A stretch of DNA of 64,000 nucleotides from Acidobacteriota bacterium (GTDB lineage Bacteria > Acidobacteriota > UBA4820 > DSQY01), in NCBI GenBank assembly GCA_021787565.1, contig JAJYLT010000004.1, positions 52,295 through 116,294 on the forward strand, read 5' to 3'. The translations under genes and the position numbers were made by a program. The notes under the pieces were generated by a model. It saw only the letters and a list, made by a program, of their open reading frames with translations, had not been told where the DNA came from and ran no database searches. This document shows positions 3,205 through 27,674 of the stretch, piece by piece (position 1 is the stretch's first letter; every line of letters starts with the position of its first letter).

Positions 3205-4522
3205 ATGAGGAAGGAGCTGGGGCCTGTCCCGAGACTGGACGAGGATTGGGAAGTGATTCTGCGGCATCTGCCAGAAGGCTGGGAAGATAAGGCCCTCGAG
3301 CTGGGAGCGATGACGCGGGCCCGGGGGTTCGAGAGTCCCGAGGCGCTGCTCCGGACGCTCCTGATTCATCTCTCGCAGGGGTGTTCCCTGAGGGAGACGG
3401 TAGTCAGGGCCCAGGAGGGAGGGATCGCCTGTGTGTCCGATGTGGCCCTATTCAAGCGGCTTCGCGCCTCGGGGGAATGGCTCCGCTGGATGGCGGGAGG
3501 CCTCTTGGGTGGCGCTTCCTGGACCGGGGTGCATGATGGAGGCCTGCGGGCGAGGGCCGTGGACGCAACGGTGGTTAGCGAGCCGGGCAGCACGGGCACG
3601 GACTGGCGCCTGCACTACGCGATCGACCTCAAGAGCCTAAACTGTGATCACTTCGAACTCACGGACGCTACCGGCGGTGAGTCGCTCCTGCGGGTACCCA
3701 TCTCGCCTGGCGACCTCCTCATCGGTGACAGGGCGTACGGCGGGGCGCCGGGGGTGAGGCACACGGTGCAATCGGGTGGGCACGTGCTCATCCGCTTGCG
3801 GCTGAACGGTCTCAGGTTGGCCACCCCCAGGGGAGTCGCCTTCAGCCCCCTCCACCGCGCCCGGCACCTCGAGGCCGGCGAGATCGGGGAGTGGCCCGTG
3901 TGCGCACTGGGAGCGGGCGAACCTATCCGGGGCAGGGTCTGCGCAGTGAGGAAGAGCAGGGCCGCCGCGGCCGAGGCGGAGAAGCGGTTGCTGAAGGAGT
4001 GCTCCAAGAAAGGGAAGAAGCCCACTCCGGCGGCGTTGGATGCGGCAAATTTCGTGCTCCTGTTCACCACGATCTCCGTTCAAGCCCTGTCCCGGTGGGA
4101 TGTGTGCGAACTGTACCGGGCTCGCTGGCAAATCGAACTCGCGTTCAAGCGGCTGAAATCCATCATGGCCCTCGGTCATTTGCCGAAGCACGACCCGGAG
4201 AGTTGCAAAGCCTGGCTCCACGGTAAGCTGTTCGTGGCCCTCCTGCTGGAGAGGACACTGGAAAGTGCCCGCGCATTTTCCCCCTGGGGGTACCGTGCGG
4301 CGTAGAAGACGCGGTATCCGGTTGGACCTTGTGGACAACCGCTGGCGCGAGTCAGCCTATCTCCTGCGAGAAATCCAGCGGGCGGTAGATCCATCGCCAG
4401 GCCTTGCTTCCAGTGTGTGCCAGTGGCGCAAGATCGAAAAGAGACTCAGGGCTTCCCATCGCTGGCGGTGGACGCAGATGGAGGAGTTAGACGCATTAGG
4501 TATAGTCGATGCGTTATCTTAA
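3205..4522 (+). mobile_element. IS4-family DDE transposase gene, interrupted by a +1 frame change near 4265-4305
   Basis: ORF 3205..4305 carries LIGDRAYGG and the IS4 Y-x2-R-x3-E-x6-K signature (YRARWQIELAFKRLK). It stops right after FSPWGY. A transposase-type C-terminus (NRWRESAYLLREIQRAVDP...WRKIEKRL) continues in ORF 4265..4522 in another frame. The element ends are not resolved. Confidence 0.75.
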
Positions 4523-4590
4523 GTTAGCGCTTATGCCCGTGAACCCCCTACCTATTCTCTCAGAATTCGGTAACGACCTTCTGATGCATG

Positions 4591-4606
4591 GGTCAGGCCT
4601 TCAGTG
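4591..4606. repeat. half copy (R-arm GGTCAGGCCTTCAGTG) of the island-specific palindromic element
   Basis: Matches the 5' arm of the elements at 7121 and 7910. No partner arm follows. A reversed fragment of the other arm (CTTAAGTTAGCGC) lies at about 4519-4531. Confidence 0.6.
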
Positions 4607-4677
4607 CTGGTCCTTTCCAACTCCTTCAGCAATGGCCTGGCCCCTTTTCCCGCATGCCCCCATTTCTCGCACTTGCC

Positions 4678-7110
4678 TCAATCCGTGCCGCTACATTCTA
4701 GCGAGGCCCGAAATGCGGGATGCACCACATACCACCCCGCACCCCCCTCAATCGGAACCATCAACTTTCTGAGGTCATACCTCATCTCGTAAGAATACCG
4801 TGGCCTTTCATCCTTCTTCCCTTGCACACCCAGAAAGCCATACCATGCGAGAAGCATCGCCGCATCGTCAACCTGTTCGGACGACAATCCTGCCCCCAAG
4901 AGAAGCTTCTTCACTTGGTCAGGCGGCAGGCACACGTCGCACCCAAGGAACACATACAGAATGTCCGGAATGCCTGGGTACACATCGCTCAATTCCGATC
5001 CCGCCAGCTGAAGCATGTCGTATGAATAATCGGCTTCCGCCTGCTTGAGATCTTCCCCCTGGACCCTATCGTGTCCCCGATTTATGGCAACCTCAATGGC
5101 CCGATGCAGAAACGAAAGAAAGTCCCTTGGTCGCATAAATGTTCTCTCAACGATATATTGAAAGGAATCCGAGGTATCGACGTATCGGTCAAATACTGCG
5201 CGCCATGTCTCTTGGAAGGAACCATTAAGGCCACCCGATGCTATAGCCCGTAATCGGAACAGTTCCTTGAACAGCTCCGTGTCTGCCCAGTCAAGAATAA
5301 TCGCTGTATCCTTTCCCTTATCGGCGGTTTCTCGGACGAGATGTTCATAAATGTCATTTCGGAGAAACACGAGACAATGGAAACGGACTCCCTGCTCTTC
5401 CAACTGGCCTTGAAGCTTCCGCGTGGCTTCAAGCAAGGTTCTAATGATTAGAACGTCGGACGCAGTTGTGCCCCTGGTAGGCCATCCTTTGTCAAGATTA
5501 TCAATGACGAGAGCTACCTCATCTTTGTCGCCGAGGTAATTTGCAACCGCGCAGTTCAATTGAGGAATGTCCTTCACGTATAGTAGCTCGGTTAGTTGGC
5601 TCGGGGATGGGACACCTCCCAGTTTCTTGCAGGCATTAGAAATGCTATTAACAAAGGCAAAGAGTCGCTCAGAGAAATCACCTCTTTCCGCATGCCCTAG
5701 CTTAGAGTCAATTAATGCGACCGCTTCATACCGTTTCCGCCGTTCTGGATCCCGGCTGGCCCATGGCTCCTCATCTTCAGTTATCTTGTGCGCAAGTTCT
5801 GCTAGGAGGATGGCATTCCAAAACGCGGTCATGGTATGTTCCTGCAGTCCAGGGGTTAGTTTCTCCAGTACCGATTCCCGTAATTTTGTGAATTGGTGCC
5901 CTTCGGGTTTCAGATCTAATACAAAGCGTGAGCGACTGTTCCCGAAAGAATCTTTGTACGCATAGAAGATTGCTGTCTTTCCCGAACCCTTTCTTCCAAT
6001 TACCAGCCTAGCGTAGCCTTGCTTAGCTTGTTGATATTGACCTGTCTTTAAGAAGTATGCCTTAAGGGGTTGGCGTTCGTTTTCAGCCGCGACGTCACCA
6101 ATATCCAACTTTTCAAGAAGTCCCTCTGGGGGCACGACTTGCCTGGTTTCCTGCCTTTGAAGCCAATTGATTATTTGCGTTATGGTGGGCTCCACCAAAC
6201 GAGGGACTTGATTGGGATCAGTGTAGCTCTTGGCCATGTCTCTATAGTCAATCGGCTGTTGAACATGCCCTTCTTGCAGCATTAATACGGCCTTCTTTGA
6301 TGCCATAGCTAGCCCGGCCGCAAATGCGCATCGTGCATTATGGACCTCAGCGCCTTTTCTTTCCTTGCTCAATAGGTGTGTAATGACGCCCAACGAGCTG
6401 CCCACTTGCCTTCGCACTTCATATAAGGACATTCTCGGCGTTTCAGTGGGATCAAACATCCGGAATTTTACGGCAGATCTTTTCAGGCTTGCTAGAAGGC
6501 GCACCTGGCCCTCAGTTTGCAGTGGACCAGCGAGCACATATAACGGAGCCTCAATGTTGATTGGGGCTGTAGTTGCAGCAAGCGCTACCAGGGGTAGGCA
6601 CTGTTTGATTCTTGCGCTGAGTTGTTCGGAATTCTGAAAGTCTGTATATCCCATTGTATCAAGCAAGCCCAGATCATCAAAGGCTCTCTTATCCTTAATA
6701 AAGGACGCATCTCGTATAGGCGCCACTGGGATTTCAAGCCCCAGTGCAAAACCTATCTCAAACAGAACGTTGAAATTGAGAGTGGTCACATCGGCAAAGA
6801 GATAGTTTGTTCGCCTCATCGCTTTGCAAATTGAACAAAATACTATCTGTCCTGCTATGTGCAAATCCTCCCAACTGCTCCATGGGCTCCCCGACGCATC
6901 TTGCTTAAGAATTGCAATGGCGGCCTTTATCGTCGCCGCAATCATGGGTGGATCTGATGGATAGAGGAACAAGCCATCCCCAGGCTCTGGCTCTGTCAGG
7001 TCCTGGTCACACTGTCCTGATGCATACTGACAAAAGGAAGGCGGCATCGAAAGGGAAGATTGGTCGTTCACAGGCTTTCTCCTAAAGGGATCTGAACACA
7101 GCTTCATCAA
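4678..7110 (-). CDS. tandem TIR-like / nucleoside 2-deoxyribosyltransferase-like domains fused to a P-loop NTPase (candidate defence protein)
   Basis: 810-aa ORF. The N-terminal ~330 aa hold two flavodoxin-like modules; the first ends in YLFADVTTLNFNVLFEIGFALGL, an acidic motif reminiscent of TIR-like/NDT-like folds (COG4271, CAP12/Pycsar-effector-type TIR). Walker A is GRKGSGKT and the Walker B-like motif is EVALVIDNLDKGW. An alternative GTG start at 7071 is preceded by AGGAG. Confidence 0.65.
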   Translation of the reverse strand: MMKLCSDPFRRKPVNDQSSLSMPPSFCQYASGQCDQDLTEPEPGDGLFLYPSDPPMIAATIKAAIAILKQDASGSPWSSWEDLHIAGQIVFCSICKAMRRTNYLFADVTTLNFNVLFEIGFALGLEIPVAPIRDASFIKDKRAFDDLGLLDTMGYTDFQNSEQLSARIKQCLPLVALAATTAPINIEAPLYVLAGPLQTEGQVRLLASLKRSAVKFRMFDPTETPRMSLYEVRRQVGSSLGVITHLLSKERKGAEVHNARCAFAAGLAMASKKAVLMLQEGHVQQPIDYRDMAKSYTDPNQVPRLVEPTITQIINWLQRQETRQVVPPEGLLEKLDIGDVAAENERQPLKAYFLKTGQYQQAKQGYARLVIGRKGSGKTAIFYAYKDSFGNSRSRFVLDLKPEGHQFTKLRESVLEKLTPGLQEHTMTAFWNAILLAELAHKITEDEEPWASRDPERRKRYEAVALIDSKLGHAERGDFSERLFAFVNSISNACKKLGGVPSPSQLTELLYVKDIPQLNCAVANYLGDKDEVALVIDNLDKGWPTRGTTASDVLIIRTLLEATRKLQGQLEEQGVRFHCLVFLRNDIYEHLVRETADKGKDTAIILDWADTELFKELFRLRAIASGGLNGSFQETWRAVFDRYVDTSDSFQYIVERTFMRPRDFLSFLHRAIEVAINRGHDRVQGEDLKQAEADYSYDMLQLAGSELSDVYPGIPDILYVFLGCDVCLPPDQVKKLLLGAGLSSEQVDDAAMLLAWYGFLGVQGKKDERPRYSYEMRYDLRKLMVPIEGGAGWYVVHPAFRASLECSGTD

Positions 7111-7120
7111 ATGATCGAGC

Positions 7121-7170
7121 GGTCAGGTCTTCGGTGTTGGTTATGGGGGCGCTAACAGTAAAGACTGACC
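7121..7170. repeat. island-specific ~50-bp imperfect palindrome (full copy)
   Basis: GGTCAGGTCTTCGGTGTTGG-TTATGGGGGCG-CTAACAGTAAAGACTGACC. The outer stem is about 10 bp with a bulge and the inner stem pairs TGTTGG with CTAACA. It lies between the lipoprotein gene and the 810-aa gene. Confidence 0.8.
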
Positions 7171-7303
7171 TTTCCAATTGCCTGTCGGGTGCGCAACGCC
7201 GCCTCCGAGTGTTATCTCCCCTCACTGTTCCTTCGGCCTGCGACCTGCTTCGCTCGAGCTAACGGCTATCCAAGCCACCTCCCGCGCCATGACCAACTGC
7301 TCC

Positions 7304-7843
7304 TCAGGCTTTCCAATGAAATATCTGGCTCAACGTTTTGTCGGCTGCATCATCGATGAATCGCATTGGACTCCCCGGTGCCAAAGTGAAGCCGGTAGCC
7401 GTTCGATTGTAGCTAGATGCGGCCAGCATGGTGTGAGTTCGGGCATCGAACACCTCTAGTGAGATGCCCGCCTTATCCCCATTGCCCGACCAAGCCGTAG
7501 CATTATCTTCCCAGTTCGTAAAGCTGGGCCGAACAAGATAATCAAATGAATTCTCCTTGGCTTCCCTGTATCCCGCTTCGAGCGCGGTGGCTTGTGTGAT
7601 CGAGATTTTCATGGAATGCTGCATCATTCGATCCCGTACTGCGGACACGAGTGCATTTGAAGAGCCCTTAGTAACCTCTTCCCCCCGTTCTTGCGCATCA
7701 TCGCAGGATAGTATCAGGAACTTCCCAGCCGGGTTTATTGATTGCCCTGGCACCACTTCCCCAACAACTCTAGTACGGGGTACAGAGCATGCCAGGCACA
7801 GACCGAAGACGACGGCAATGGCTGATGGTAAGTAGAGTTTCAT
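7304..7843 (-). CDS. lipoprotein, DUF4823-like, unknown function
   Basis: 179-aa ORF with a good RBS (AGAGGAGGGG) and a signal peptide with lipobox (VFGLCLAC-S). The FTNWEDNATAWSGNGDK segment resembles the DUF4823 lipoprotein family from memory. Confidence 0.6.
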   Translation of the reverse strand: MKLYLPSAIAVVFGLCLACSVPRTRVVGEVVPGQSINPAGKFLILSCDDAQERGEEVTKGSSNALVSAVRDRMMQHSMKISITQATALEAGYREAKENSFDYLVRPSFTNWEDNATAWSGNGDKAGISLEVFDARTHTMLAASSYNRTATGFTLAPGSPMRFIDDAADKTLSQIFHWKA

Positions 7844-7909
7844 GTCCCCTCCTCTTTACCCAACTAGATAGCGTGGGCTTCGCACTTATAGTACCCACTG
7901 AGACGCAGG

Positions 7910-7962
7910 GGTCAGGTCTTCAGTGTAAGTCATTTCGGACGCTAACAGTAAAGATTTGACCC
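7910..7962. repeat. island-specific ~50-bp imperfect palindrome (full copy)
   Basis: GGTCAGGTCTTCAGTGTAAG...GACGCTAACAGTAAAGATTTGACC. Two stem positions are G-T, which would be G-U pairs only in a plus-strand transcript. It starts 16 nt after the stop of 7978..8541. Confidence 0.8.
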
Positions 7963-7977
7963 CATTTCCGCGCAACA

Positions 7978-8541
7978 TCACGGCTTTCCCGCCTCTCTTG
8001 GGGCTGGCTTCTCCTTGCCTTCAGGTTTTTCCGCTCCAGGGGCAGCCACTTTGTCACCGGGCCGGGGAGAGACGAGGATTTGAACGTCCCCTGACTCCAG
8101 CGGGAGAATTACTTCAATCTTCTTTATGGTCCTGGCCTGCCCAGAACCGGAGGTGGCCACATTGCTGATCAAAGCTCCGGCCAGAAGGACATAGCCCAGG
8201 ACGAACGTCCACATCATGATGTTGTACGACCATTTTACCCAAGGTCCCAATGCTGGCGGCTCTGGAGGGGCGCCGGCAGCATCAGGGGCAGGTACTCTCA
8301 GGTCACGCCAAGCCGAGAAGGACGTAAAGACCCCAGAAAGCGCAGAGATCGCCAGTAATACCCAGGCCGCAATCATGGGGAACTTCCCGTGCGGCGCACC
8401 CTGAAAGCGGTCATAGAAATAGGTCCCGGATAGAACCAAGGCTCCTGTTGCTACACCGACCAACCAGTTGCTGCCATCCCGGATCCATTCCAGCCTTTTC
8501 GAATGCAGGTCAGCCTCTCCCATCAGCCACCCCCTACCCAC
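7978..8541 (-). CDS. membrane protein (3 TM helices) with charged Pro/Lys-rich tail, unknown function
   Basis: 187-aa ORF. Hydrophobic segments are WLVGVATGALVLSGTYF, MIAAWVLLAISALSGVFTSF and IMMWTFVLGYVLLAGALI. It lies 19 nt downstream of the 93-aa ORF, so co-transcription is likely. Confidence 0.6.
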   Translation of the reverse strand: MGRGWLMGEADLHSKRLEWIRDGSNWLVGVATGALVLSGTYFYDRFQGAPHGKFPMIAAWVLLAISALSGVFTSFSAWRDLRVPAPDAAGAPPEPPALGPWVKWSYNIMMWTFVLGYVLLAGALISNVATSGSGQARTIKKIEVILPLESGDVQILVSPRPGDKVAAPGAEKPEGKEKPAPREAGKP

Positions 8542-8560
8542 CTAGCCGAATGCGCCCTCC

Positions 8561-8842
8561 TCACGAGGCACAGAGTGGGCATCCGCTCGAGAAGGCATGC
8601 CGGAGATTGACGTGAGTCATTCCCAGGTTTCCTCCCCTCCTAAGCTCCGCGACAAGCCTCCCGGAGGCCCAATATGTCGCTTCCAGGAGGTCGTCGTTCG
8701 CCGCCCGATGGATAGCCGAGGCGTATTGCTTAATGATGGAATCCGCGATGGCCTCAGCCTCCGGCCTCCAGATCGGAACGGAATGAATGAGGTTACTTAT
8801 GAGAATGTCCCGTGCGCGGTCTACGACGCTGCCATCCGCCAT
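8561..8842 (-). CDS. small soluble hypothetical protein (93 aa)
   Basis: Intact ORF with an ATG start, immediately upstream of the membrane-protein gene. No recognisable motif. Confidence 0.45.
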   Translation of the reverse strand: MADGSVVDRARDILISNLIHSVPIWRPEAEAIADSIIKQYASAIHRAANDDLLEATYWASGRLVAELRRGGNLGMTHVNLRHAFSSGCPLCAS

Positions 8843-8928
8843 GGTCCTCCTCCCTCAGTGGGGTTCCCTCTCAAGAATGCGACATTCCTGCTGTTCTGCC
8901 TAGAAGCAGAACCCGCATTTCAAGAGCA

Positions 8929-8955
8929 GGGGCGCTAACAGTAAAGACTTGATTC
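8929..8955. repeat. half copy (L-arm GGGGCGCTAACAGTAAAGACTTGATT) of the island-specific palindromic element
   Basis: The 15-nt core CGCTAACAGTAAAGA is identical to the copies at 7151 and 7941. The partner arm is missing. An unrelated perfect 7-bp hairpin (GTTCTGC-ctagaa-GCAGAAC) lies just upstream. Confidence 0.7.
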
Positions 8956-9051
8956 CTCTTCATCCTCGGGCGCTCGCCGACCTTTTCCTTGCCGCCCAGC
9001 AAGATCCTACGCCTCCTGTGGCCTTTCAAGGTGCGACCTTTCTTCCACCAA

Positions 9052-12000
9052 TTACTCGAACCCACGGATGTTCTCCTCTTCTTCCCGCTTCCTGTCGACC
9101 TCCGCCATCCGTCTCAACTTGCGGGCGGAATTCATTGCCCAGCGCTTCAATTTCGGGTGCCTGGTTCGAATAGCGACCTCATCTAGAGTTCTGGCCAACT
9201 CCCCCCAATGGGCTGATGCGGGCCCGCTCCACCCTCCCGACAAGAAAACCGAGAAGTACTCCTCTCCGACATCCTTCCTGCCACCGTAAGCCGCAAGCAT
9301 ACGACCGGTGAGCGTCTCATCATTCGATAAGTCTTTGTTGGCGAAGTGTGCCACGATCGCACTTCGCTCTGCCGGTTGCTCTCGAACCCATTCCAGCACC
9401 ATCTCGGGAGGAATCTGGTCCATGATGCCGGCCGGGAATCCGACGCTAAAGGAATAGACCCCCGCAGACCGTGACAAGTGCGGCAGTAACGCTTGCCATA
9501 CGTCGCCAGGGTTCTGCTTAACACAAGCTTGTAGCACCACGGCCGCCTCACTATGCTCGGCGAACCAGATCCCAGCGGAATGGCTGGCCTGCTCTCGGAA
9601 GATCGCCGCGGCAATCTCCCCTGGGTGGTCGCAGACGTACCTTAGCGCCAGCTCCTTCCAGAAGTGATTGGTCATCGAACTGCTGCGTATGAGGTCCGAG
9701 TCAACTATCAGCTCAACCGCCAGTGCGCGCCATCTTTCTGCTTCCGTCTCTGACTGCTTGAGCCGCTGGTCAAGGATGGCGACGGCCGTCGCGCGATGGC
9801 CGCCTTCTGTCATGGCTCTAAGAACATTCTCTAGAAGGTCCTGTGACAGGTTTCCCCCCCAGACACCGTAGCCAAGCTGTCCCACGATCTCCGGCGGGAT
9901 TTCTTCTTGGCGAAGGAGGCTCGCAAGCTGAACCGACACGCCAGCGGTAGCGCCGCAGCGCCAAGCTACTTCGAAAAGGAGACCTGTCGGACGAGGATCA
10001 CGGTGAAGGACGGCCTCAAACCAATGGTCATACCAAGCATCCCCGCGACCCCGCCGCAACGCGCCAACATAGCCACACAGGATTCGAAAGTCGCGGCCGG
10101 AACCCGCGAACTCAAGTGCCCGTGCTGCAAATGTGCCGTCAGGGTCCTCGGCGGCAAGCGCCTCGCCGAGCCGCCAGGCGTCTGTCGCATCTCCCGAGGT
10201 CAACCAGGGCCATTCTTCAGCTAGCACACCATCAGATTCGAGGAGTTCCTTCGCAAGTTGCCGGAGATCGACTTGTTCCTCCCGGTCCCAGAATGTTTGT
10301 CCCACGAGTTCTCGAATGCGTCCTGTCAGCGATGCATCCTTGAATCGGGCGTGCATGGAATCCAGGCAAGCGAGTTCGCTTTCCGGCAGGCCCTTTGAGT
10401 ACTTGCGCGCGCGATATACGGCATCCGCGATCATTCTGCGAAGCGGCTCCCGCGACTGGGGATATCTGACCCGGACGGCGTCGAAGTACCGGCCAACAAA
10501 TGGTCGAGCATCCGGCTGTCTTAACAAGAACTTGAGTTCTCTGGCTGCCTCCAAGAAGTCTCTTTCTAGTTCGGCATCACCTTCCGCTGCGAGGGCAGTC
10601 ACACGCTTGATGGCAGATTCGATGCATCCAACGTGCTCTGCCCTGGTACTGGGCTTCCACTCCTCTTCAGGAAGCTCGTCGGATGCCGGTTCTGTAACCA
10701 TACGGCTCACGTGAGGCGCGCCAGCACGCGTTAGCGCTTTAATCACCAGCCTGTCAAGAGTAGATCGGTTCTCGTTGGACAAGTCATCAAGGACCTGCAG
10801 GCGCTCCAGGTAGGGCACAGCCGTGCCGCCCAAGAAGATCTGAAATAGGCCGACGAACTCGGCGGTGGCATTGTTCGCCCATGTTTCGTTTTCGGCTTCC
10901 GCCAAGAGGGCAAGTGCTTTCGCAGCGTCCGGAAATACTTCGGATCTCCAGGCGAGTCGAACGAGCGTCGACACCGCTATTCTGCGAGCAGCACCGTCAA
11001 CGCGCTTCCTGTCCGCAATGTCGCAGTCAGTCAATGCGCCAAGGATATTGCGTGCAGCTTGGTACGGATCGGCAGAGGAAAGGGCTGACCATCGCCGGAC
11101 CGCACGCGCATCGACGAAGTCAGCCAGATGAAAAAAACGATCTAAGGCCTGCCGAGCGAATTCTTTGGTGGTTGGGTTGCTTGCGATGGACCTAATACGC
11201 TCATAGTAGGCGTCTCGCGCACCCTCTGTCGGTAGAGCATCGGGCAAACCAGAAAGATGATTTCCGTAGGTCCTCCAAGCCTCAATGGCCAAGTAATTCC
11301 CTAAAGGAGTTGGCGAGATGTATCGGTAGCGGCCACCACGAGGCACGATCCCAAGTCGGCGGTCAAAGGCCTCTACTTCTGCCTGTGCAATATTCCAATC
11401 GAGATGAAGGTGACCTGATACCGCTTGGCCCTCGGTCTGCACTTCCTCGGTCCAGCCAACACTGGCAAGGACAGCAACAACATGAAGGGCACGCCTGTCG
11501 CCTGGACCGAGCATGCGGTCTAGGAAATCACGGATTTCCTCTCGATCTAGAAGCCCTCGAATGTTCAAGGCGGGGTCCTTGGCGACCGCATCGGCTGCCA
11601 GCAGCGCCAGTCGTATGTAGCCATCGGCAAACCGAACGACAAATTGCACGTGCTCTGGGGGCATCGTGGTGTGTAATGCTGAGACGACCTTTCCTGCCGT
11701 CTCTTGGTCCAAGGGATTAACCTTGAAGGACTGAATGCGAGTTGGCTCAGGTGATGCGCAGTGGCCAATGGTGATGAGACGGATCCGCCCATTTGTACGG
11801 CCAATCGAATCACGCAATGGCAAAAGTTGGTCCGGTTGTACCTCATCAGCAACAACTACCAGGCGAACATCGGGCTCGGCGGCGGCAGAATCAATTAGTG
11901 CGGGCAGGCGGAAGTCGGCCGCCTGCCGGAAATAGACTACAAATGCGGACCACGGCGCATCACGGCATAGCTCCAGCGCAAATCTCGTTTTGCCCACACC

Positions 12001-12687
12001 GGGTTGGCCTTGGATGTGCAGGTGTTGGACCGTCCCGGAATCGAACTCCATGGCTGCTCTCAGTTTCTCCAACTCAGACATCGTGTTGTCCAGTGCCTGC
12101 CAGGGCACCTGATGAACCTCGGCCCTCAACCAATCACCGAGCAACCACAGGCCCCCGGGTCGTCCAGCCCACCGGGCCGCAACGGCCGGATTCTGATTGC
12201 ACCAGGTGGTGAGGCGCTCACTCCCGATCACTTCAATACTTCCGGTGGTAATATCTGCGGCCAGGGCCTCGTCCCTCAGTACATCCTTGCGGTCCGCTTC
12301 ACCTTGTACGCCGTTGGTCGACCCACTTGCGACAACAACGAAACGTCCCTCGTCTTCCAGCGTCTTCCTCGGTATTGGCTTGATTACCTCGCCCTTGAGT
12401 TTTGAAGGCTGACCCGCAACTCCGGCCTTGAACTGCCAACAGGTGGCGGTCCTGCCGAGCCATGAATCGTCTAGTTCGGGCTCAGCAGTCCATCCATCAC
12501 ATCCGCCATCCTTTGCCTTTCCTTCGGTGTTGATCGTCAGTCTAGATAACGGAGATCGACAACGGTGGGCTTGGGCTCGCAACAGGTCATGCATTAGCTC
12601 AGTAAGGTCCGAATCACTCAAGGCTGCAATCCTCGCGGGCGATACCTGCAGGGCATCGCGGTAGACTTCTGGATGAGGCCTACTCAT
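9052..12687 (-). CDS. Mrr-like (PD-(D/E)xK) nuclease domain + STAND-type P-loop NTPase + long alpha-helical repeat region (Avs-like single-gene defence candidate)
   Basis: 1211-aa ORF with RBS GGGGAGG. The N-terminus (SDSDLTELMHDLLRAQA...KDGGCDGW...CWQFK) fits the D...(E/Q)xK restriction-endonuclease pattern. Walker A is GQPGVGKT and Walker B is LVVVADEV. About 750 C-terminal residues are Leu/Ala/Arg-rich and helical. Confidence 0.7.
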   Translation of the reverse strand: MSRPHPEVYRDALQVSPARIAALSDSDLTELMHDLLRAQAHRCRSPLSRLTINTEGKAKDGGCDGWTAEPELDDSWLGRTATCWQFKAGVAGQPSKLKGEVIKPIPRKTLEDEGRFVVVASGSTNGVQGEADRKDVLRDEALAADITTGSIEVIGSERLTTWCNQNPAVAARWAGRPGGLWLLGDWLRAEVHQVPWQALDNTMSELEKLRAAMEFDSGTVQHLHIQGQPGVGKTRFALELCRDAPWSAFVVYFRQAADFRLPALIDSAAAEPDVRLVVVADEVQPDQLLPLRDSIGRTNGRIRLITIGHCASPEPTRIQSFKVNPLDQETAGKVVSALHTTMPPEHVQFVVRFADGYIRLALLAADAVAKDPALNIRGLLDREEIRDFLDRMLGPGDRRALHVVAVLASVGWTEEVQTEGQAVSGHLHLDWNIAQAEVEAFDRRLGIVPRGGRYRYISPTPLGNYLAIEAWRTYGNHLSGLPDALPTEGARDAYYERIRSIASNPTTKEFARQALDRFFHLADFVDARAVRRWSALSSADPYQAARNILGALTDCDIADRKRVDGAARRIAVSTLVRLAWRSEVFPDAAKALALLAEAENETWANNATAEFVGLFQIFLGGTAVPYLERLQVLDDLSNENRSTLDRLVIKALTRAGAPHVSRMVTEPASDELPEEEWKPSTRAEHVGCIESAIKRVTALAAEGDAELERDFLEAARELKFLLRQPDARPFVGRYFDAVRVRYPQSREPLRRMIADAVYRARKYSKGLPESELACLDSMHARFKDASLTGRIRELVGQTFWDREEQVDLRQLAKELLESDGVLAEEWPWLTSGDATDAWRLGEALAAEDPDGTFAARALEFAGSGRDFRILCGYVGALRRGRGDAWYDHWFEAVLHRDPRPTGLLFEVAWRCGATAGVSVQLASLLRQEEIPPEIVGQLGYGVWGGNLSQDLLENVLRAMTEGGHRATAVAILDQRLKQSETEAERWRALAVELIVDSDLIRSSSMTNHFWKELALRYVCDHPGEIAAAIFREQASHSAGIWFAEHSEAAVVLQACVKQNPGDVWQALLPHLSRSAGVYSFSVGFPAGIMDQIPPEMVLEWVREQPAERSAIVAHFANKDLSNDETLTGRMLAAYGGRKDVGEEYFSVFLSGGWSGPASAHWGELARTLDEVAIRTRHPKLKRWAMNSARKLRRMAEVDRKREEEENIRGFE

Positions 12688-12913
12688 TTCTTGCTGCCTC
12701 CCCTAACCGATTCATATCGTCACGAACCGTATTGCCAGACGAATTGGCGGTACCGCCTTCGAAATGACGGGGTCACGAGATAGCCGAGTAGGGCGGCCAT
12801 CGTCTCTGTGATGGCCACCTTTCTCAGAAATCATAGCGGCCGTTCCCTTTCCTTCGGCCCTCCACTTGCATGGTGGCGGTGGGCAAAGTCGAATCGCCGC
12901 TCTTACCGACTGT

Positions 12914-12972
12914 ACTCTCTTCACCTCTTGACCTCTTGACCTCTTCACCTCTTTACTCTTCACCCTTTACCA
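12914..12972. repeat. octanucleotide tandem repeat (CCTCTTSA)n
   Basis: CTCTTCACCTCTTGACCTCTTGACCTCTTCACCTCTTTACTCTTCACCC with period 8, at the right border of the low-GC island. Confidence 0.8.

Positions 12973-27598: not shown

Positions 27599-27674
<76 letters not shown>

Follow-up and report, generated by a model that had tools for sequence, protein, structure and literature searches.

Several described systems come close to the gene analyzed here. The Retron-Eco1 (Ec86) effector is a nucleoside 2-deoxyribosyltransferase (NDT)-like N-glycosidase that hydrolyzes NAD(P)+ in defense (PMC12673091), and DUF4062 (Swarozyc) is a TIR-like NADase, distantly related to the NDTs, that becomes activated in a supramolecular complex (10.64898/2026.05.01.722283). 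Comparative genomics has drawn attention to proteins in which a TIR or DrHyd domain precedes a STAND-type NTPase (PMC7159879), and DS-41 ('AAA2', DefensePredictor) is a validated single-protein ATPase defense of ~502 amino acids (aa). The present gene lies on the minus strand of a 64,000-nucleotide (nt) stretch of Acidobacteriota DNA (contig JAJYLT010000004.1, positions 52,295–116,294; "the window" hereafter means this whole stretch), and encodes a predicted fusion of two NDT/TIR-like α/β modules with a P-loop ATPase of the Sll1717 family. We infer, with moderate confidence, that its product acts alone, as an immune protein of the abortive-infection type directed against phages (or mobile elements), in which an NTPase switch controls an N-glycosidase effector.

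NDTs of the classical kind are small and assemble as homodimers or hexamers. Module 1 of the window protein shares with the NDT/DNPH1 enzymes (Rcl; PF05014, clan Nribosyltransf) the F-E-I-G glutamate motif and, to judge from its model, probably the flavodoxin-like fold, but is followed in the same chain by a Glu-less tandem copy and an AAA+ ATPase. Retron-Eco1 offers the best functional precedent for the putative effector, although the retron effector is governed by a reverse transcriptase–msDNA complex and the window protein has a fused ATPase instead. CAP12/Pycsar TIR (PF10137) and DUF4062 effectors have in common with module 1 a motif of the N-x-N-V-x-F-E-x-G type and probably a TIR-like fold, but are driven by cyclic-nucleotide sensors or a phage portal rather than by an Sll1717 ATPase. 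As in Avs, bNACHT and STAND fusions, an N-terminal, presumably enzymatic effector is followed by a central NTPase and a winged helix; unlike Avs/NLR proteins, the window protein stops after the winged-helix-like domain, without repeats or a C-terminal sensor. DS-41 differs in having no NDT-like N-terminus. The family NF047389 covers the ATPase only and carries no function, the window protein belonging to a branch with a tandem NDT-like unit. The ATPase family is named and the effector superfamily established; their combination as a system was not found in our literature search, in line with a preliminary description of the window, in which this exact architecture did not count as a described system. 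No paper naming 'Sll1717' was found in the library searched, and searches for NDT together with ATPase/STAND defense yielded papers on retrons, Thoeris and DUF4062 only.

Gene and domain architecture

An uninterrupted 810-codon open reading frame (ORF) occupies positions 4678..7110 of the minus strand, its longest possible reading beginning at a TTG at 7110. Inspection of the sequence revealed a GTG at 7071 that would yield a 797-aa protein. This GTG is the likely start, because an AGGAG sequence precedes it by 6 nt (Table 1), because the 100% identical database twin P0001 (797 aa) begins there, and because relatives are 790–800 aa long. Residues are numbered throughout according to the 797-aa protein. 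The preliminary description had given an 810-aa ORF without naming its strand; the ORF is present, and the likely product is 13 codons shorter. All motifs that it quoted were located, namely ADVTTLNFNVLFEIGFALGL (residues 93–112) and the Walker A and Walker B sequences. A protein search with the full ORF returned 1136 matches at E ≤ 1e-3, the best 120 of which are all full-length, with ~97% query coverage and 48–65% identity. As judged by these comparisons, the gene is intact, real and under selection, the 1136 matches excluding a chance ORF.

The AlphaFold2 model of residues 1–320, computed from 28 sequences (predicted local distance difference test (pLDDT) 86.5; predicted TM-score (pTM) 0.87), contains two strand–helix-repeat modules at residues ~31–160 and ~177–308, and thereby supports the earlier proposal of two consecutive α/β, flavodoxin-like modules. 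The high pTM suggests that modules 1 and 2 are held in a fixed mutual orientation. Among 175 full-length homologs, the core motif of module 1 retains D94 in 173, N99 in 174, N101 in 175, E105 in 174 and G107 in 173, so that the FE(I)G glutamate singled out in the preliminary description is present in nearly every relative. PF05014 (Nuc_deoxyrib_tr) is the only family recurrently matched by module 1, with sub-threshold matches on the motif region in 24 of 28 family members (best E 3.5e-5), and a Leptospira plasmid homolog reaches 31.4 bits, above the gathering threshold of 28.8. Other distant plasmid homologs gave sub-threshold matches to PF10137 and DUF4062, and two homologs matched PADLOC TIR effectors weakly. 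PF10137 (threshold 24.7 bits) did not match the window protein and reaches only 13.9–18 bits in distant homologs; none of the Pfam TIR families matched the window protein. Searched against PDB sequences, a module 1 profile retrieved Rcl/DNPH1 alone, at a non-significant E of 2.3. In the alignment with Rcl (2klh), D94...E105-I-G is placed on E...Y-E-L-G, and E105 falls on the catalytic glutamate.

With the two-module model as query, Foldseek retrieved DNPH1 chains (probability 0.97–0.98; target-normalized TM-score (TMt) 0.56–0.60; E only ~0.02–0.04) and, with equal scores, the TIR domains of PdTIR (3h16) and MAL (5uzb) (probability 0.99; TMt ~0.6); SARM1 and TIR-STING were also among the single-domain matches. 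A phage CMP/hydroxymethyl-CMP hydrolase was found in BFVD, together with a CAP12-TIR protein at probability 0.87. The top-ranking EngA and glycosyltransferase matches, which are two-Rossmann proteins with TM-scores of 0.2–0.3, were set aside as generic two-domain similarity. As judged by profiles and by the model, module 1 is an NDT/TIR-superfamily domain with its hydrolase-type motif preserved, which places this module in the TIR/NDT-type fold originally suggested; by sequence it looks somewhat closer to the NDTs than to canonical TIR domains. As to the likeness to CAP12/COG4271 proteins that had also been noted, the motif is of that type and a CAP12-TIR protein is among the BFVD matches; PF10137 leaves the window protein unmatched.

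A fold similar to those of PdTIR, MAL, SARM1 and TIR-STING, together with the weak PADLOC TIR-effector and CAP12-TIR matches of some homologs, would also fit a module 1 that acts as a TIR-like signal generator, producing a cyclic ADP-ribose-type messenger for an unlinked effector in the manner of ThsB in Thoeris. The profiles, however, favor PF05014 over TIR families, and no effector gene is conserved alongside in the 73 homolog loci described below; we consider such a role very improbable.

Conservation of module 2 equals that of module 1, with N245 retained in 173 homologs, G253 in 175, P273 in 172, D275 in 174, Y276 in 160 and R277 in 166, and K260 also near-invariant. Searched alone against Pfam and PDB sequences, it returned no family and no relative. 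An hhalign comparison of the two modules gives a weak match (p 0.0046) that pairs N99 with N245 and G107 with G253, Ala or Val replacing Glu105. The TIR/NDT assignment of module 2 is drawn from shared topology and this weak match, no sequence link to TIR/NDT families having been found; the label "TIR/NDT-like", which had been applied to both modules, holds for the first on profiles and structure and is only partly justified for the second. By sequence, module 2 reads as a diverged Glu-less copy complementing module 1. In NDT and DNPH1 enzymes, which occur as obligate dimers, the active sites are composite; the natural reading by analogy would be that modules 1 and 2 form a covalent pseudo-dimer with a single active site.

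Two further features of the N-terminal region were noted. First, the four cysteines listed in Table 1 co-occur in 126 of the 175 homologs, and the branch without the N-terminal extension that carries C14 and C21 mostly lacks C79 and C82 as well; they probably form a structural Zn site that would clamp the N-terminal tail onto module 1. Second, the segment of module 2 at residues ~231–262 (window ~6286–6381, minus strand), conserved as HLLxxxRxGAxVHNARxAFxAGLAxAxxK, resembles part of cyanophycin synthetase (7lgm, THLIPATLEGKAIHNVENAMFAAGMAYALGK; E 0.08), a likeness that may reflect chance or a common nucleotide-binding loop.

The C-terminal part matches NCBIfam NF047389 ("P-loop ATPase, Sll1717 family") with 292.1 bits against a cutoff of 75 (E 8.9e-87), over the whole profile (1–454 of 454) and on residues 337–804 of the 810-aa reading, i.e. 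residues 324–791. Pfam yielded weak AAA_16/AAA_22 matches only, and neither the full protein nor the ATPase profile detected a solved structure among PDB sequences, P-loop fragments apart. The AlphaFold2 model of the module, built from 32 diverse sequences (pLDDT 89.8; pTM 0.87), has among its top Foldseek matches in the PDB Orc1/Cdc6 (2qby_A; E 5.7e-5, probability 1.0) and the archaeal AAA+ protein SSO1545 (2fna, TMt 0.55), besides TnsC, RuvB, FtsH and Rpt subunits of the proteasome. On the evidence of the model, the module is an ORC/Cdc6-like AAA+ ATPase with a lid and, at its C-terminal end, a winged-helix-like domain; the structures closest to it are Orc1/Cdc6, SSO1545 and TnsC, not NB-ARC/NACHT or Apaf-1/NLR proteins. 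The P-loop NTPase with Walker A and Walker B motifs given in the preliminary description was correctly identified; its "helical tail" corresponds, in the model and the Foldseek matches, to the AAA+ lid plus the winged-helix-like domain.

The module opens with an invariant AENE helix (residues 329–332), and a ~110-residue helical insert separates Walker A from Walker B. The Walker lysine, whose conservation was likewise at issue, is nearly invariant in the alignment of the 32 sequences, in which R571 and D573 are invariant as well. The Walker B form hhhDNhD, with its invariant second aspartate, resembles that of STAND/NACHT-type NTPases. From these residues, catalytic competence of the ATPase is very probable.

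The architecture could in principle be read with the roles reversed, the N-terminal tandem sensing a nucleotide- or NAD-derived ligand in a SLOG/TIR-like manner and the AAA+/winged-helix part providing the output, e.g. DNA binding or remodeling. ORC/Cdc6- and TnsC-like ATPases work on DNA, the extreme conservation of the Glu-less module 2 (N245, G253, D275) is as would be expected of a binding pocket, and the two-domain Foldseek matches resemble two-Rossmann cleft proteins (glycosyltransferases, EngA). We nevertheless regard this arrangement as quite unlikely: (i) the hydrolase motif of module 1 is complete, its all but invariant glutamate lying on the catalytic glutamate of Rcl; (ii) no signal-producing partner gene is linked; and (iii) Sll1717 ATPases without the N-terminal unit exist, so that the N-terminus fits an add-on effector.

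The DS-41 hidden Markov model (HMM; NF053860 DS41_1_antiphage) matches residues 340–389 of the window protein with 21.6 bits against an equivalog cutoff of 370, and homologs with 31–48 bits, covering positions 7–379 of the 448 in the profile in the Leptospira protein. These scores hint that DS-41 and the window ATPase are distantly akin and not of the same family. Sll1717 ATPases from enterobacterial plasmids did not match the DS-41 HMM.

Distribution, mobility and proposed function

The N-terminal 320 aa alone matched the representatives of 1120 clusters formed at 50% identity; the majority of these proteins are 770–810 aa long and therefore have the same architecture. A scan of one genome per species found at least 80 loci in many phyla (Acidobacteriota, Actinomycetota, Chloroflexota, Nitrospirota, Gemmatimonadota, Verrucomicrobiota, Planctomycetota, Bacteroidota, Bacillota, Spirochaetota and others), distributed patchily over more than 10 phyla and including the cultured Terriglobus roseus DSM 18391, whose homolog lies at ~4.8126–4.8149 Mb of NC_018014. 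At many loci (L005, L007, L010, L011, L014, L015, L017, L019, L028, L044, L060, L062 and others) the homolog is broken into 2–3 ORFs; frameshift errors are likely, since the assemblies are mostly long-read metagenome-assembled genomes, but some of these homologs may be true pseudogenes. A tblastn search of 50,697 phage records matched no homolog and IMG/VR contained two loci only, on which grounds a phage counter-defense gene was rejected.

All plasmid relatives tested, from six phyla, are full-length NF047389 members that differ in their N-termini. The tandem NDT-like unit occurs in proteins of Paraburkholderia, Mesorhizobium, Ensifer, Bacillus mycoides, Leptolyngbya and Leptospira, plasmid homologs being, for instance, WP_095423614.1 in Paraburkholderia and WP_252195590.1 in Bacillus mycoides, with two of the plasmid proteins that carry it being named "nucleoside 2-deoxyribosyltransferase" and "nucleotide-binding protein" by PGAP. 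A 662-aa Rhodococcus relative has a different 170-aa N-terminus without a family match, and ATPases of Klebsiella (501 aa), E. coli and Planococcus (477 aa) have no N-terminal unit. An ATPase chassis with exchangeable N-termini corresponds to the pattern of immune switch-plus-effector proteins and fits their modular logic. The Sll1717 ATPase family as a whole is present on 221 plasmid records. Effector-less members of ~500 aa, annotated 'hypothetical protein', are common on conjugative plasmids (83 Escherichia and 64 Klebsiella records), an example being positions 3656–5161 of the Klebsiella pneumoniae plasmid NZ_CP084857.1, besides which ~150 other enterobacterial plasmid records were counted.

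To compare neighborhoods, ORFs from the 80 genome loci above were clustered all-vs-all, and 73 loci were counted. No partner gene is conserved, the largest neighbor cluster being present at 5 of the 73 loci. The two nearest genes on each side, inspected at 37 loci, are heterogeneous and comprise housekeeping genes, integrases, resolvases and several defense genes, among them restriction-modification genes of types I and IIG, AbiEi, SIR2, a TIR effector, PDC-S35 and HNH. At 43 of 49 loci the GC content of the gene is more than 3 points below that of its flanks; the median difference is −7.7 points, and at no locus does the gene exceed its flanks. On plasmids the gene is accompanied by integrases, IS21 and AbiEi (Paraburkholderia), by PLD, HEPN/Toprim-associated, RES-Xre and IS91 genes (Mesorhizobium), by DUF4238 and IS66 (Ochrobactrum) and by a caspase/serine-protease/AAA cluster (Rhizobium). 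On the Rhodococcus qingshengii plasmid NZ_CP054208.1 (2060–9464), the 662-aa Sll1717 ATPase is flanked by a TIR protein and by a DUF4062 protein of >1200 aa. The gene is horizontally mobile and has no partner gene. The concern that homologs might be embedded consistently in metabolic operons was not realized, the contexts being variable and rich in mobile and defense genes.

These contexts bear on two further explanations. The same architecture might serve an element rather than its host, as a plasmid or island addiction module, in competitor exclusion or in stress-triggered growth arrest, the ATPase gating a toxic N-glycosidase to the element's advantage. The gene is frequent on plasmids and beside transposases and integrases, it is virtually absent from phages, and a deviating GC content proves transfer, not purpose. 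We judge this reading unlikely all the same, given that no cognate antitoxin or partner is conserved over the 73 loci, that recognized defense genes are co-located at several loci, and that single large NTPase–effector fusions are typical of immune sensors rather than of addiction modules. Alternatively, the protein could be a housekeeping salvage enzyme, a true nucleoside 2-deoxyribosyltransferase with a regulatory ATPase, as the automatic PGAP/JGI name of some members and the metabolic neighbors at some loci would have it. With its patchy distribution over phyla and no conserved operon, with a gene systematically AT-richer than its flanks, an island and insertion-sequence context and plasmid carriage, and with a 470-aa AAA+ switch that is not known as a trait of salvage NDTs (PF05014), this is barely credible.

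Returning to single-protein immunity, which we prefer, the protein would be inactive in the uninfected cell. An infection cue, either a phage protein or nucleic acid, would be sensed by the helical insert or the winged helix of the ATPase and would cause ATP-dependent oligomerization of the AAA+ modules, by which the N-terminal units would be brought together or unlocked. Each N-terminal unit would act as a covalent pseudo-dimer, Glu105 being supplied by module 1 and the complementary D275/Y276/R277 by module 2. Once active, it would cleave NAD(P)+ or a (deoxy)nucleotide at the N-glycosidic bond, so that an essential metabolite would be depleted and the infection aborted.

Several points weigh against this proposal. 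With PF05014 the window protein stays below the gathering threshold, at 14.9 bits (E 0.03), and the single-domain Foldseek E-values for module 1 reach only ~0.02–0.04. The protein has no repeat-type sensor domain of the Avs/NLR kind. PADLOC (2023) contains no model for it, a weak partial match to the candidate PDC-M28C being the only one obtained. Many neighbors are ordinary housekeeping genes (ThiC, PolA, RNR, ligase, L1), and the defense-island enrichment of the neighbors is no more than suggestive. Substrate, trigger and oligomeric state are, moreover, all features that we infer.

A more specific proposal is that the winged helix would sense foreign nucleic acid and thereby switch on a Zn-clamped NDT-like pseudo-dimer with one active site, whose substrate would be the nucleotide pool (e.g. 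N-glycosidic cleavage of dNMP/dNTP or modified nucleotides) and not NAD+, in an immune family of ~1,100 clusters (50% identity) from more than 10 phyla that none of the defense catalogs searched covers. This version is possible but doubtful; if true, it would mean a new effector chemistry in single-protein immunity. If the broader proposal of a single-protein defense is confirmed, (i) the family would be a widespread one-gene defense, common in soil phyla in which few systems have been tested (Acidobacteriota, Actinomycetota, Chloroflexota, Nitrospirota), (ii) NDT-like N-glycosidases would be immune effectors beyond retrons, and (iii) the Sll1717 ATPase family, present on many enterobacterial plasmids, would gain a function. 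The pairing of a putatively active with a putatively inactive tandem domain would also make it practicable to study how a dimeric nucleotide hydrolase turns into a switchable effector.

The low-GC island and its other features

The gene is carried by an island of low GC content (Table 1), which, as judged by its composition, is horizontally acquired. The transposase gene bordering the island edge has a host-like GC content. The Avs8-like STAND gene, 2 kb from the gene under study and on the same strand, also gave a weak AAA_16 match; PD-Lambda-4, since renamed Avs8, is a STAND NTPase that senses major capsid proteins (10.64898/2026.01.04.697583). Because an Avs8-like gene shares the low-GC island with the gene under study, we consider the island a small defense island. 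No retron components were found near the gene. The DUF4823 gene and the 187-aa and 93-aa ORFs that lie between the two large genes are not conserved beside homologs, and a multi-gene system including them was rejected, no partner being kept at the homolog loci.

Table 1. Coordinates in the window of the gene, its predicted domains and motifs, and the features of the surrounding island.
Feature	Position	Strand	Basis
Coding sequence, 797 aa	4678..7071	-	GTG start 7071, stop codon 4678-4680; identity with P0001
Shine-Dalgarno sequence AGGAG	7079..7083	-	6 nt ahead of GTG; sequence inspection
Module 1, residues 28-165, NDT/TIR-like α/β domain, putative N-glycosidase effector	6577..6990	-	PF05014 matches, AlphaFold2, Foldseek
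Core motif D94-VTTL-N99-F-N101-VLF-E105-I-G107-FALG	6739..6792	-	Conservation; aligned with Rcl/DNPH1 catalytic-Glu motif
E105 codon	6757-6759	-	
Module 2, residues 170-310, α/β, Glu-less (HN245ARCAFAAG253)	6142..6564	-	AlphaFold2, profile alignment, conservation
Cysteines C14, C21 (N-terminal hairpin), C79, C82 (helix start, FCSICK)	6826..7032	-	Homolog alignment, AlphaFold2
Sll1717-family AAA+ module, residues 324-797	4681..6102	-	NF047389 292 bits, AlphaFold2 pLDDT 89.8, Foldseek
Walker A GRKGSGKT, residues 359-366	5974..5997	-	G/R/K/G/G invariant, Lys nearly invariant (32 diverse sequences)
Walker B LVIDNLD, residues 521-527	5491..5511	-	D524 and D527 invariant (32 diverse sequences)
R647-P-R649, invariant; candidate arginine finger/sensor 2	5125..5133	-	Alignment; role suggested by AAA+ fold
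C-terminal winged-helix-like domain, residues ~717-791	4699..4923	-	Secondary-structure order in model; Orc1/Cdc6 and SSO1545 whole-module matches
Low-GC island carrying the gene	4306..12950	.	49-59% GC vs 67-72% in flanks; boundaries approximate
IS4-family DDE transposase	3205..4305	+	NCBIfam transpos_IS4_1, 125 bits
Avs8/PD-Lambda-4_A-like STAND protein, 1211 aa	9052..12687	-	PADLOC E 5e-21, residues 18-711 vs profile 9-737/1283
DUF4823 protein, 179 aa	7304-7843	-	E 2e-10
ORF, 187 aa	7978-8541	-	Faint cytochrome-b/SLATT-like matches
ORF, 93 aa	8561-8842	-	
Island-specific intergenic repeat, ~70-80 nt	7105-7175, 7895-7970, 8925-8965; diverged copy 4575-4650	-	Core GTCTTTACTGTTAGCGYCC

The intergenic repeat occurs in one copy per gap between same-strand genes and has imperfect inverted arms, GGTCAG(G)TCTT...AAGACCTGACC. 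Its core is found three times in the 64 kb, where 0.02 occurrences would be expected. The diverged copy carries compensatory changes in its arms, and the single-stranded DNA folds are weak (z about −1). By sequence the repeats look like cassette boundaries (attC-like) or a shared terminator/operator; with regard to an integron cassette, canonical attC ends and an integrase are absent. A metagenome scan with a 15-mer of the repeat, a pattern too short to be informative, gave single chance matches only. The only tRNA gene in the window, tRNA-Phe (GAA) at 27599-27674 (minus strand), is 15 kb from the island and not adjacent to it. At the GC transition, ~230 nt upstream of the Avs8-like start, there are about five head-to-tail copies of the 8-nt unit CTCTTSAC (12917-12956).

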